Shown: positions 7,586 to 17,017 of the stretch, piece by piece
Layout: every line of letters begins with the position of its first letter
Position numbering within the stretch: position 1 is the stretch's first letter
DNA from: Thermodesulfobacteriota bacterium
GTDB lineage: Bacteria; Desulfobacterota; Desulfobacteria; Desulfobacterales; SURF-7
Reading direction: 5' to 3'
Length of the DNA: 64,000 nucleotides
NCBI GenBank assembly: GCA_049320885.1
Contig: JBMORA010000001.1
Location: forward strand, 146,622-210,621
Translations under genes and position numbers: made by a program
Notes under the pieces: generated by a model
Seen by the model: only the letters and a program-made list of their open reading frames with translations
Database searches by the model: none
Told to the model about the DNA's origin: nothing

Positions 7586-9769
7586 CTACCTCATGGAAGG
7601 CGGCAGTTGGGTGAAATCATAATATTCGTAAAGACCGGTGTGAACGGAATTGAGATAGGTCAGCAACTGCTGGTCTGTATACCCATCGACGACATAACGC
7701 TTGATGAATCCCGTTTCAGCGCCGTTTTGCGAATTCCAGTTGGTGTAGAACATCCGGCCCTGGTGGAAGGTGTCGATATAGTATTTCCCGGAAAAGCAGG
7801 TGTTGAAGAAGATCATCTTGTATTTGCAGTCTTCCGGCTGGATGTCCTTGCTGTTGGTGGCATCTATGATGGTCTTGTTGCCGTACCGGGAGTCCTCGAA
7901 ATGGGACCGGTATTCGTCCTGGTTGTCGATGCGGGAGGACTGCCGGGTGTTGGCGGGGTTGACCGCGGACAGATAATCCGCGATCATCCGGCCGCTGCCA
8001 CTGCCGGTAAGGGTCACGGTGACCGCACCCTCCACCACCGGATAGGTGCCGATGGAAGCAGTCACATAATTGCCGGCCGGTGTGTCGGCGGGTTCCCGCT
8101 GGTTCAGGGTGACGGTCCCAAGCACGGTGTTGTTCTGTTGGATGGTGTAGGTCACGGCTGTATCATTGTTCGGATCCGGGTCATAGGTGACGGAAAAATC
8201 ATAGGTGCCGGCCGGATTTCTGGTAGGATAGAATGCCAGGGTATACGTGAAGGTGTCCGCAATCGTCTGGTTGGGGGTGAAACTGTAGGTATACCCGCGG
8301 AATCCATAGAGGGTGCTGTTTTTCTGCACCGCCCAGTTGCCGCTGTATTCCACGTGGCTGAATTCCGGTTTTGAGTTGACGATGAAATAACTCGGGTTGT
8401 TCACCGGATTCGGCTTGGCGCCCGTGGGGGAATACCAAGCCGAGCCGCTGCCCTGGAAGCGCTCGAGGTATTGGCCGTTGGACGAGGCTTCCACCCGGTA
8501 GTGGGTGGGATCGCCCGGCAGGGTATAGGTCAGGTAATAATTGTAAGCCGGCAGGCGGCCCGCCGGATCATCCCAGCCATAGGGCCATTTGGCGTCGCTG
8601 CCGTCCTGATAGATGGGCGTCCAGTTGGGATAGGCCTGGCTGTAGCGGAACCCGGCGGTGGTGACATCCACCATGTCCGAGGAGCAGTTGAAGATCAGGT
8701 TGTCGTCCACATAACGCACATTCTGGAGCGCGGTGTTAAACGGCGGGAAGGTCAGGCCCAGACCGTAATTGGAATGCCCGCGGATCAGGATCACGGCGCC
8801 CTCTTCCCGGACTGCAGCCAGGAATTGTTCCTTGGTCTTCACCGGGTGGAAGAAATAGGTCACCCCGTTTTTGGGACTGGTGTAACGCCAGATCCCGTCC
8901 ACCTTGACGGCGCCGTAGCGCGACAGGCTCTGGCCGGCCACTTCCGCGAAATTGGAAATGCCGCCGTAAATTTCCACGCAGTAGATATTTTCCGACGCGG
9001 AGGTCAGTTTGATGTAGGCCTCCTTCACCATGGTATCGCTGCCGAACTCATTGGAAGCGGTCAGGCTGACGGTATAGTCACCGTCTTGGTCATACACATG
9101 GGCCGGATTCTCCTCGAAGCTGGTCTGACCGTCACCGAAATCCCAATACCATTCGGTGGCCGCGCCGCCGGTGCTCAGGTCCGTGAACTGGATCGTGGCA
9201 GGCGCACCGCCGATGGTTTTATTGGCGGAAAACTCCGCCACCGGCGGCAGGGTGTTGATCACCTCGGTGAACTTCACCGCATCGGCGCAGGTGGTATAGG
9301 TGCTGTTGGTGCCGGTTATGGTGACTGTGTATACAATACCGGCCACGAAGGAATAGGTTCCAAGGACATTCCATTGCCCGCCGTTGACGCGCTGGTTGAC
9401 CCGGACCGTGGCGGTTCCGTTGGCATGCCGGATGGCAATGGGCGCGCTGGTCACCCGGTTGGCAAACACCGTCCACCAGGCGGAGACTTCATATTCGGCT
9501 GTGGTGGGCGGAATGAAGGTATAGGTATAGGTCGCATTGTTTTTGGCATAGATGCTGTCCACACCATAGGGATCCACGCCGCTGGAAACCAGCCACGTAC
9601 CGGTATAGGACGTTTCATTGTCGCCGTTGTCGATGATGATGTCGGCCGCGGCAGAGGCGAGCCCCACCACCATAGACAGTGTTAACAGGATAAATATACT
9701 GAATATACGGGCCGGAACCGGCCTCCATCTCGCATTTTTCTTTTCCGTGATGTTTCTGAAAGTGTTCAT
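7586..9769 (-). CDS. secreted modular protein, paralog 1: 1x[golvesin/xanthan-lyase-CBM-like + PKD] plus putative clan CD cysteine-peptidase-like core (727 aa)
   Basis: Start ATG 9769 (RBS GGAG); 42-aa signal ending ASAAA; IIIDNGD..TGTW..YEVSAWW..VNQR..GGQW..ADAVKF module; PKD WDFGDG..NPAHVY..YTVSLT; core ILIRGHS...FFNTCFSG. Confidence 0.85.
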   Translation of the reverse strand: MNTFRNITEKKNARWRPVPARIFSIFILLTLSMVVGLASAAADIIIDNGDNETSYTGTWLVSSGVDPYGVDSIYAKNNATYTYTFIPPTTAEYEVSAWWTVFANRVTSAPIAIRHANGTATVRVNQRVNGGQWNVLGTYSFVAGIVYTVTITGTNSTYTTCADAVKFTEVINTLPPVAEFSANKTIGGAPATIQFTDLSTGGAATEWYWDFGDGQTSFEENPAHVYDQDGDYTVSLTASNEFGSDTMVKEAYIKLTSASENIYCVEIYGGISNFAEVAGQSLSRYGAVKVDGIWRYTSPKNGVTYFFHPVKTKEQFLAAVREEGAVILIRGHSNYGLGLTFPPFNTALQNVRYVDDNLIFNCSSDMVDVTTAGFRYSQAYPNWTPIYQDGSDAKWPYGWDDPAGRLPAYNYYLTYTLPGDPTHYRVEASSNGQYLERFQGSGSAWYSPTGAKPNPVNNPSYFIVNSKPEFSHVEYSGNWAVQKNSTLYGFRGYTYSFTPNQTIADTFTYTLAFYPTRNPAGTYDFSVTYDPDPNNDTAVTYTIQQNNTVLGTVTLNQREPADTPAGNYVTASIGTYPVVEGAVTVTLTGSGSGRMIADYLSAVNPANTRQSSRIDNQDEYRSHFEDSRYGNKTIIDATNSKDIQPEDCKYKMIFFNTCFSGKYYIDTFHQGRMFYTNWNSQNGAETGFIKRYVVDGYTDQQLLTYLNSVHTGLYEYYDFTQLPPSMR
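8978..9643 (-). repeat. 666-bp CBM-like+PKD module, single copy in paralog 1
   Basis: Aligns by eye with the five copies in paralogs 2 and 3. Confidence 0.85.
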
Positions 9770-9880
9770 AGTCTCCGTTCTCCCATTGTTATCTTGATAC
9801 AAACAAGGATCATCATGTTGCGTGAATCCGGCCCACATCCATGGGCCGCATCCTTCCTGCTTTATGTACGGCATCAGTAG

Positions 9881-16500: not shown

Positions 16501-17017
16501 TATTGACAATCTCGGTGAACTTCATTGCATCGGCGCAGGTGGTGTACGTGCTGTTGGCGCCGGTGATGGTGATTGTGTAGGTAATTCCGGCGACAAAGGA
16601 GAATGTCCCCAGGGAATTCCATTGGCCGCCGTTCAGGCGCTGGTTGACATAGACGGTTGTTGTTCCGCTGGCATGCTGGATGCGGATCGGGGCGCTGGAA
16701 ACCCGGTTCGAAAAGTAAGTCCACCAGGCAGACACCTCGTATTCCGAAGTTGTCGGCGCCGTGAAACTGTAAGTGTAGGTGGCATTGTTCTTGGCATAAA
16801 CGCTGTCAGCGCCGTAGGGATCCAGCGCGGTGGAAACCAGCCAGGTGCCGGTGGCGGAAGTCCCGCTGTCGCCGTTGTCGATGATGATGTCAGCCGCTTC
16901 ACCGGCCGTTCCAGCCGCCAATGTCAGGACCAGCATGATAACCACATGGAACAAAGAGGTCTGTAACCGCCAAAGCCACATGTTGTTCTTTTCCGCGTTG
17001 TTTCTGAATCTGTTCAT
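13502..17017 (-). CDS. secreted modular protein, paralog 3: 3x[CBM-like + PKD] plus the same core (1171 aa)
   Basis: Start ATG 17017; 42-aa signal ending AGEAA; three modules; exactly 666 bp longer than paralog 2. Confidence 0.85.
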   Translation of the reverse strand: MNRFRNNAEKNNMWLWRLQTSLFHVVIMLVLTLAAGTAGEAADIIIDNGDSGTSATGTWLVSTALDPYGADSVYAKNNATYTYSFTAPTTSEYEVSAWWTYFSNRVSSAPIRIQHASGTTTVYVNQRLNGGQWNSLGTFSFVAGITYTITITGANSTYTTCADAMKFTEIVNTLPPAADFSADRTTGMVPATIQFSDRSTGGIPTDWLWDFGDGQTSTGQNPSHVYEQEGVYTVTLTAANEYGSDMAVKTAYITITAGTGGDPGEIIIDNGDYGTSATGTWLVSTALDPYGVDSVYAKNNAAYTYSFTAPKTSEYEVSAWWTYFSNRVSSAPIRIQHASGTTTVYVNQRLNGGQWNSLGTFSFVAGITYTVTITGANSTYTTCADAVKFTEIINTLPPAADFSADRTTGVAPATIQFTDQSEGGIPTEWLWDFGDGQTSTEQNPAHVYEQEGVYTVSLTATNGFGNDTAVKTAYITITAGTGGDPGEVIIDNGDNGTSFTGTWLVSTAVDPYGVDSVYAKNNAAYTYTFIPSTTAEYEVSAWWTYFSNRVTNAPIRIQHAGGTATVYVNQRLNGGQWNSLGTFSFVAGVVYTVTITGANSTYTTCADAVKFTEIINTLPPAADFSANKTIGGAPATIQFTDLSSGGNATEWLWDFGDGQTSTEQNPAHVYEQEGEYTVSLTAANEFGSDTMVKAAYIKLTSASENIYCVEIYGGITDYAEVAGQSLSRYGAVKVDGIWRYTNPNTGVTYFLHPVTTQEQFLAAVREEGAVILIRGHSNYGLGLTFPPFNTALQNVRYVDDNLIFNCSSHMVDVSTAGLRYSQAYPNWTPIYQDGTDAIWPYAWDDPAGRTPAYNYYLTYTLPGDPTHYRVESSSTGKYLERFAGSGPAWYSPTGAKPDPVSNPEVFIANTRPEYSHVEHSGNWAVQKDATLYGIAGYTFSYTPNQTIADTFTYTLTFYAPRNPAGTYDFKVTYDPEPTNDPAVTYTIQQNNTVLGTVTLNQQEPAGTPAGSYVLASLGTFSVAEGAVTVTLTGSGSGWMIADGLAAFNPAIPWQFFAVDNNDEYRSHFEDSRYGNKTILDTTNCQDIRPEDCKYKMMFFNTCFSGKYFIDSFHQGRMFYTNWNSENGAEMGFIKRYVVDGYSDQQLLDYVNSVHPGLYEYYDFTKLPPSMR
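14894..16891 (-). repeat. three tandem 666-bp CBM-like+PKD modules
   Basis: Matching landmarks at 15289, 15955 and 16621 (period 666). Confidence 0.9.

Follow-up and report, generated by a model that had tools for sequence, protein, structure and literature searches.

We analysed a 64,000-nucleotide stretch of a Thermodesulfobacteriota genome (GenBank assembly GCA_049320885.1, contig JBMORA010000001.1, positions 146,622 to 210,621; hereafter the window), in which three paralogous genes, here called g1, g2 and g3, lie in tandem on the minus strand. Each encodes a likely secreted protein in which one, two or three stalk units containing a carbohydrate-binding module (CBM)-like domain precede a C-terminal core, the head, so that the genes form a 1-2-3 length ladder. 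The ladder itself teaches little, as duplicated genes commonly gain and lose repeats. Of greater interest is the head: its family has no Pfam or NCBIfam model and is predicted to be a caspase-fold cysteine enzyme, apparently sited in surface-polysaccharide clusters.

Three tandem genes and their modules

Open reading frame (ORF) inspection shows no internal stops, and the three genes have the lengths given in the first-pass annotation of this DNA (Table 1). A module start motif recurs with a period of 222 amino acids (aa), once in g1, twice in g2 and three times in g3, at the identical residue position in each protein. In Pfam searches Golvesin_C (PF25275) and PKD exceed their cut-offs, with one, two and three PKD stretches, and motif period and profiles together uphold the earlier description of the step as one CBM-like plus PKD module. 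Every module but the last ends in a 7-aa linker, and one extra Golvesin_C match lies within each core. The cores are of equal length, as first described, but the 1,392 bp originally assigned to them is arithmetic; by domain boundary the last module has 645 nt and the core 1,413 nt (470 aa and the stop). We consider all three proteins likely to be secreted, their signal peptides, put at 42 codons in the first annotation, being called by sequence reading and hydropathy; the predicted mature forms have masses near 76, 100 and 123 kDa. All end in PPSMR without a hydrophobic tail, and the 19-residue hydropathy maximum outside the leader is 1.4–1.55. At the DNA level the modules are 75.5–89.5% identical and the cores 84–89%, and all copies are under purifying selection (dN/dS, the ratio of nonsynonymous to synonymous divergence, 0.09–0.17 for cores and 0.13–0.24 for modules). 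No further copies were found in the 5.6-Mb genome.

A candidate sigma-54-type −24/−12 site, TGGCATG(C/T)CTATTGC, lies 124–132 nt upstream of each ATG. The exact pattern occurs at three sites in the genome, all at g1–g3, and a looser consensus at 51. About 100 nt beyond these sites is a 19-bp motif that occurs four times in the genome, always ahead of g1–g3; the pattern was derived from these very sites, so only its absence elsewhere in the genome counts. The open frames extend further upstream than the start codons first proposed, which are favoured because a sigma-54-type site sits at this distance from each. The claim that the genes are separately promoted is thus supported by a promoter-type site ahead of each gene. 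A strong hairpin also follows the stop of every copy, so promoter, gene and hairpin must have been duplicated as one. Across the family, for which a scan of GTDB genomes yielded at least 56 loci, the strict sigma-54 pattern lies upstream of only 2 of 56 genes, many of them inside operons, and family-wide sigma-54 control is hence not supported.

It is highly improbable that mis-assembly produced the ladder from fewer modules or from modules in another arrangement. The data are of short-read type and none of the listed contig pieces covers the whole stretch, but the modules and cores have diverged to the extent given above, and the longest exact repeat across the region is 107 nt, without a single repeated 109-mer, which makes mis-assembly unlikely. 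Given this repeat length, 150-nt reads would fix the module order (the read length is not on record). In one sequencing run (X1), not independent of the assembly and possibly its source sample, unique pieces cross both gene junctions at a depth of 18, compared with 22 in the flanks, and a low-depth contig from another study (X2) joins a paralog end to the region upstream of g1 (9911–10271).

Table 1 Features of the three-gene locus, in window positions
Feature	Position	Strand	Description
g1	7586–9769	−	2,184 bp, 727 aa; likely signal peptide, 1 module, core
g2	10239–13088	−	2,850 bp, 949 aa; likely signal peptide, 2 modules, core
g3	13502–17017	−	3,516 bp, 1,171 aa; likely signal peptide, 3 modules, core
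g1 module 1	8999–9643	−	core-adjacent, T type
g2 module 1	12297–12962	−	A type
g2 module 2	11652–12296	−	core-adjacent, T type
g3 module 1	16226–16891	−	outer, A type; Golvesin_C, PKD and 7-aa linker
g3 module 2	15560–16225	−	A type; 89.5% nt identity to g3 module 1, its likely duplicate
g3 module 3	14915–15559	−	core-adjacent; T type with A-type patches
g1 core	7586–8998	−	predicted clan CD domain, two halves; His codon 8774–8776, Cys codon 7796–7798
g2 core	10239–11651	−	His codon 11427–11429, Cys codon 10449–10451
g3 core	13502–14914	−	His codon 14690–14692, Cys codon 13712–13714
g1 inserted domain	7952–8359	−	CBM35-like (Golvesin-like), between His and Cys
g2 inserted domain	10605–11012	−	CBM35-like (Golvesin-like), between His and Cys
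g3 inserted domain	13868–14275	−	CBM35-like (Golvesin-like), between His and Cys
g1 promoter-type site	9882–9896	−	sigma-54-type −24/−12
g2 promoter-type site	13206–13220	−	sigma-54-type −24/−12
g3 promoter-type site	17127–17141	−	sigma-54-type −24/−12
g1 upstream motif	9998–10016	−	19 bp
g2 upstream motif	13322–13340	−	19 bp
g3 upstream motif	17229–17268	−	19 bp, two copies; possible activator site
g1 hairpin	7536–7576 (approximate ends)	−	3′ of stop, no U tract; z −4.94
g2 hairpin	10190–10227 (approximate ends)	−	3′ of stop, no U tract; z −3.62
g3 hairpin	13450–13491 (approximate ends)	−	3′ of stop, no U tract; z −3.85

The predicted caspase-fold head

A first homolog search found 43 proteins, two of them from the window. 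With a CBM-free homolog (L050) as the query, 246, 149 and 105 representatives (clusters at 50% identity) were recovered at E ≤ 1e-3, ≤ 1e-10 and ≤ 1e-30, respectively. The head consists throughout of two halves, either with no domain in between or set apart by a CBM, alone or together with two PKD domains. Among the 121 of 178 homolog proteins that have both halves, a His (of G-H-S-N) is present in 120 and a Cys in every one; for the genes of the family loci the counts are 64 and 65 of 65.

AlphaFold2 models have a mean confidence (pLDDT, predicted local distance difference test) of 90.9 for the window core and 94.1 for L050. When L050 was compared by VIA-align with 48,161 chains, the top 14 matches were all clan CD (Z 11.1–7.9), and the first other fold followed at Z 7.6. 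The matches include CHAT 8tl0 (Z 11.1, root-mean-square deviation (rmsd) 3.2, 153 residues aligned), separases (Z 9.4–10.4), legumain (9.2) and the OaAEP1 ligase (9.1), with gingipains (7.6) and glycosylphosphatidylinositol (GPI) transamidase (7.4) further down. The window core, residues 1–470, likewise matches SAVED-CHAT 8tl0 (Z 11.3, rmsd 3.4, 163 aligned), separases, DdvA, OaAEP1, metacaspase, C11 and legumain, and its inserted domain (in g1) matches the xanthan lyase CBM 6f2p (Z 15.8, rmsd 2.0, 123 aligned) and MiXBM (Z 11.6). Clan CD enzymes carry the His at the C-terminal end of strand 3 and the Cys at the end of strand 4, as set out in PMC4357240. In the model of the window core, strand 69–73 is followed by G74-H75 and strand 395–399 by C401; in that of L050, strand 78–82 precedes H84 and strand 260–264 precedes C266. 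Judged by secondary-structure order, the two residues follow the third and fourth core strands, which matches the clan CD order.

From these models we predict that the head is a clan CD cysteine peptidase domain, with the His–Cys dyad likely catalytic. The first-pass annotation had called the head catalytic without saying what it is; a predicted clan CD fold and a conserved His and Cys do make it look catalytic, and the identity left out would be that of a caspase-fold cysteine enzyme. Weighing against this assignment, the best fold Z of about 11 is moderate, the dyad was placed by secondary-structure order rather than by residue-level superposition, and Foldseek returned nothing for the L050 catalytic domain at E ≤ 0.001, its weak rows being unrelated folds.

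By sequence profile the head belongs to no named clan CD family. The cores of g1–g3 have no Pfam match besides the inserted Golvesin_C, and g1 has no NCBIfam match; Pfam models of the named families (C11, C13, C14, C25, C50 and CHAT) do not match g1–g3 at E ≤ 0.01, and no clan CD family matches the bare core of L050 at E ≤ 0.05, nor any of 16 further homologs. Sequence searches of the PDB found stalk domains only and no peptidase, and Foldseek with the window core only CBM matches. The ESM Atlas gave no usable match for the window core, and its leads for L050 all stay under 0.9, including DUF6345 at 0.85. No paper describing the family was found in the literature searched, with MEROPS outside that search. 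What is new here is thus a predicted, unnamed clan CD family tied to surface-polysaccharide loci.

Measured against the named members of the clan (CHAT, separase C50, legumain C13, metacaspase C14B, clostripain C11 and gingipain C25), the core aligns at Z 8–11 over about 135–165 residues and shares the G-H after the third core strand and the C after the fourth. It differs from them in having no sequence-profile match to any, in the approximately 130 conserved residues between His and Cys, to which most members add a CBM with or without two PKD domains, and in its CBM/PKD stalk and its siting in polysaccharide clusters.

The family also has more distant, stalk-less members with the His and Cys (P0154, P0157, P0164, P0169, P0173 and P0174), which have lipoprotein-like leaders and Asp-rich linkers. 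The dyad is also kept in CBM-less members, and two of these six lipoprotein-like proteins are fused to the partner domain described next.

In 16 of 56 loci (L050:1138-1896, L035:7493-8200 and 14 others; also at L082:9234-9998) the next gene encodes an unnamed secreted protein of about 235 aa, which is fused to the C-terminus of the core in ten more (L026, L033, L038, L040, L041, L043, L044, L049, L059 and L060). It has a conserved C-terminal motif and no Pfam match, is limited to one of the two main clades and always stands directly after the core or fused to it; it is absent from the clade of the window and from the genome studied here. At a guess, it might regulate or inhibit the core.

Origin of the length series

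In a quick tree with Shimodaira–Hasegawa-like approximate likelihood ratio test (SH-aLRT) support, from which core fragments were left out, g1–g3 form one clade (support 100) and g1 and g2 are sisters (98). The modules fall into an outer type A (g2 module 1, g3 modules 1 and 2) and a core-adjacent type T (g1 module 1, g2 module 2, and the mosaic g3 module 3). The core-adjacent CBM of a relative (P0003) shares about 60% identity with all six, its outer CBM about 45%. Synonymous divergence (dS) is 0.35 between g3 modules 1 and 2, 0.48–0.54 between the cores and about 1.0 between the A and T modules of g1 and g2. On the simplest history, the series likely arose from a two-module ancestor, in which the core-adjacent module had duplicated to give A and T; the whole transcription unit would then have triplicated, after which g3 would have duplicated A and g1 lost it, giving 3-2-1. 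Recombination between homologous modules shifts length by exactly one period, so the exact 666-bp steps need no further cause. We rejected an origin of g2 by unequal crossover between g3 and g1, which predicts a g1-like front and a g3-like core; g2 shows the reverse.

The closest syntenic relative (L064) has a single copy of 1,677 aa with a different stalk; it is 81% identical to the window in the aminotransferase, 71% in the flippase and 68% in the best segment of the core. Its gene (L064:6872-11905) is preceded by a sigma-54-like site, read by eye, and has two outer CBM modules of 100% identical protein sequence, pointing either to an assembly effect or to an internal duplication that is very recent. 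Two congeneric genomes, 99% and 94% complete, yielded no core, and sixty relatives gave no core match, the sole match (G016) covering only the inserted CBM. Among 400 genomes of the order, with two candidates per genome scored, 66 others matched, only five of them over the core. In metagenomes a first scan found nothing and a second found three loci, two of which are apparently one.

The number of modules in relatives had been set beforehand as the test on which the ladder would stand or fall, and the counts vary. For 49 complete genes of the family (leaving out the frameshifted L039 and genes open at the 5′ end), the N-terminal CBMs number 0 in two genes, 1 in 7, 2 in 12, 3 in 18, 4 in 6, 5 in two, 6 in one and 8 in one, with some counts lowered by frameshift-split genes. 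Tandem duplications arose several times according to the tree, and tandem pairs occur in 10 of 56 loci. The seven pairs with both frames intact step by +1, 0, +1, −2, +2, +1 and 0 CBMs, with stalk differences of −254 to +568 aa and mixed domains; two of them have an extra upstream CBM frame. In one pair, the second copy (L053:2349-4130) has Glu in place of the catalytic His and may be inactive, next to an intact paralog. A further possible triple was seen only at L039:4475-14936, apparently three tandem family genes with many frameshifts that are probably sequencing errors.

With module numbers ranging from 0 to 8, unequal tandem steps and a single-copy L064, the idea of the exact ladder as a design finds no support, and it is probably not a designed system. 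What stands of the original proposal is that the same head sits on stalks of one, two and three units; selection for graded reach is not needed to explain it. The 1-2-3 ladder is real but likely incidental, a by-product of ordinary duplication. Two points tell against this. Three counts drawn from the observed distribution give a monotonic ladder in 5.4% of cases and consecutive counts in any order in 16%, and under a plus-or-minus-one model the values are 5–7% and 14–22%; under the nulls tried a monotonic ladder is thus still only about 5–7% likely. In addition, gene conversion, seen in the mosaic g3 module 3, blurs the order of events.

The same low chance figure would speak for a series kept by selection, with three reaches or avidities setting one enzyme at different matrix depths. 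This reading could also draw on the intactness of all copies, on core dN/dS staying low despite a dS near 0.5, on the retained promoter-type sites and on the difference in CBM number in five of the seven intact tandem pairs elsewhere. Those steps are, however, irregular and involve mixed domains, the syntenic L064 has a single copy, the core was not found in the two congeneric genomes, and dosage would also explain the retention of three copies. Moreover, 'reach' would have no fixed base, because g1–g3 have no membrane or wall anchor. We therefore regard selection for graded reach as improbable.

Periscope proteins likewise present a functional head on a stalk of beta-sandwich repeats that vary in number (PMC9704523). 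Their repeat number is described as changing likely via homologous recombination, and the same source calls the role of repeat variation in enzymes not yet defined. The repeats of g1–g3 are 75–90% identical. In contrast to Periscope proteins, the head is C-terminal, no wall or membrane anchor is present, and stalk length differs between three fixed paralogs of a single genome, not between alleles of a population. As three natural length variants, they are a ready-made test of the effect of stalk length on activity.

Genomic surroundings and proposed function

The trio lies at the end of an exopolysaccharide (EPS) cluster that starts about 40 kb earlier with a PEP-CTERM gene and holds XrtA-type chain-length, kinase, sugar-transferase, export and deacetylase genes, an exosortase, EpsI, glycosyltransferases and an AsnB-like amidotransferase, although several of these gene calls do not reach the curated cut-off. 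Epimerase, aminotransferase, ATP-grasp, GT2, porin and flippase genes flank the trio. This exosortase-type content confirms the EPS gene region recognised at first pass. The genome has a second exosortase (G000:C18:23857-24621) and seven clear PEP-CTERM genes in all. As in the PEP-CTERM/exosortase A EPS system described in PMC1569441, the genes lie in such a cluster, each alone behind a sigma-54-type site. Unlike PEP-CTERM proteins, g1–g3 have no C-terminal PEP motif, transmembrane helix or basic tail, and no PrsR exceeds its cut-off in the genome (best score with model TIGR02915 425.7 bits, cut-off 502.6).

Family loci come from genomes named as Deltaproteobacteria, Syntrophorhabdaceae, Desulfosarcina, Phycisphaerae (Planctomycetota), Nitrospirota and others, anaerobic sediment and biofilm bacteria. 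Common neighbours are Wzx, Wzm/Wzt, Wzy, GT2, GT4, pyruvyl transferase, PGA_cap, EpsI, AsnB-like, ATP-grasp and GNAT genes, and many loci, unlike the exosortase A system, use Wzm/Wzt or other clusters. Among the 41 loci flanked by 8 kb or more, a surface-polysaccharide marker (ATP-binding cassette (ABC) ATPase and epimerase not counted) is present in 31 compared with 21 of 297 own-genome windows, and amide-forming genes (AsnB-like, ATP-grasp or GNAT) in 26 compared with 4 of 297; these figures are a description and not a test statistic, because the markers came out of clustering these very loci, which are moreover related to one another. A scan of nine marker-free loci, with three partial ORFs left out, found AsnB-like and sulfotransferase genes in one (L052) and mostly unrelated genes in the rest; four of the nine are extra copies, whose genomes hold another copy in a polysaccharide cluster.

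The Golvesin_C modules of g1–g3 resemble, by PF25275 profile and, for the inserted copy, by fold match, the xanthan lyase CBM, MiXBM, CBM35 and Cbeg4/Cbeg5, and related modules bind glycans in the Cbeg4/5 lectins and occur in xanthan lyase (PMC9166713). From shared named members we infer that Pfam Golvesin_C is the IPR033803 domain of Cbeg4/5. Here the modules are joined to a predicted peptidase, and not to a lyase or an Fn3 domain as in xanthan lyase and Cbeg4/5.

We put it at an even chance that g1–g3 encode a secreted caspase-fold peptidase, held by its CBM-like modules on the cell's own EPS and cutting amide bonds of the matrix, with the ladder incidental. With a peptide or aminoacyl-sugar amide as substrate, the Cys would form a thioester acyl-enzyme, water would release the acyl group, and the hydrolysis would trim matrix proteins or the amino-acid decorations of the polysaccharide. 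Counting against this reading are the partial circularity of the co-location figures and the approximately eight loci in unrelated surroundings; furthermore, glycan binding by the modules is deduced from their fold, and peptidase activity and substrate are predictions.

The present data fit hydrolysis and transfer alike. The head could instead be a transamidase, a sortase-like ligase, which we consider possible but unlikely. It would cut a cargo protein, or itself, pass the acyl group to a free amine on an amino-acid-decorated EPS sugar and in this way cross-link protein and polysaccharide outside the cell, as PorU does for anionic lipopolysaccharide (A-LPS). Clan CD includes known ligases, and OaAEP1, gingipains and GPI transamidase are among the fold matches; the amide-forming genes adjoin 26 of the 41 loci, and the cluster in the window itself holds an exosortase, EpsI, an AsnB-like gene and an ATP-grasp gene. 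PorU, of the gingipain family, is implicated as the sortase for A-LPS, and VimA-like and asparagine-synthase-like genes adjoin exosortase and EPS genes, according to PMC7468200. Like PorU, the family has a (predicted) clan CD fold, and the AsnB-like, ATP-grasp or GNAT genes near it may be of the kind linked there to an amide-bearing linking sugar, again with the partly circular count. On the other side, no cargo signal was detected, CHAT and separase rather than the ligases are the best fold matches, an exosortase is already present at the locus, and the same neighbours would suit an amidase equally. The family also differs from PorU in having no C25 or C13 profile match, no type IX secretion system (T9SS) domain or signal match and no known cargo.

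It is accordingly a doubtful proposition that the unnamed family consists of secreted transamidases of caspase fold which, here on three stalk lengths, staple proteins to EPS decorated with amino acids. If true, sulfate reducers, syntrophs, Planctomycetes and Nitrospirota would have a counterpart of PorU and GPI transamidase that is soluble and guided by CBMs, controlled in one clade by a dedicated helical partner encoded next to it or fused. It could then supply the missing outer step of protein–EPS attachment in exosortase-type systems, whose cargo has been proposed to be conjugated to an unidentified compound (PMC7468200). The family gives a direct handle on the attachment of proteins to EPS, and on their release from it, in these organisms.

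A third reading, in which the proteins are non-catalytic, lectin-like cross-linkers of the matrix and the caspase-fold head serves binding or oligomerisation, is very unlikely. It would account for the two to four CBM-like domains per chain, given the glycan binding of related modules in Cbeg4/5 (PMC9166713), and for the Glu in the L053 tandem copy, but not for a His and Cys conserved almost without exception, even in the distant CBM-less lipoprotein-like members.

Several other genes of the window deserve mention. An Rrf2 regulator and a complete-looking hmc operon (HmcA, B, C, E and F above cut-off) lie at 35407–42134 on the plus strand, and the presence of this operon points to a sulfate-reducing host. 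Directly after g1, positions 5263–7422 (minus strand) encode a polytopic membrane protein of 719 aa with no Pfam or NCBIfam match, which could be a membrane glycosyl- or acyltransferase. A likely secreted 388-aa protein with no family match is encoded at 1342–2508 (plus strand); a sigma-54-type site at 1369 falls within this longest frame, and the true start is probably later. The 710-aa protein at 22217–24349 (minus strand) combines, in an unusual order, a leader, a beta-helix-like N-terminal part, PKD, a hydrophobic segment and an outer-membrane-barrel-like C-terminal part ending in Trp. Finally, a 507-aa protein at 27616–29139 (plus strand), which adjoins the flippase and has no family match, is 73% identical to the product of the syntenic gene in L064.

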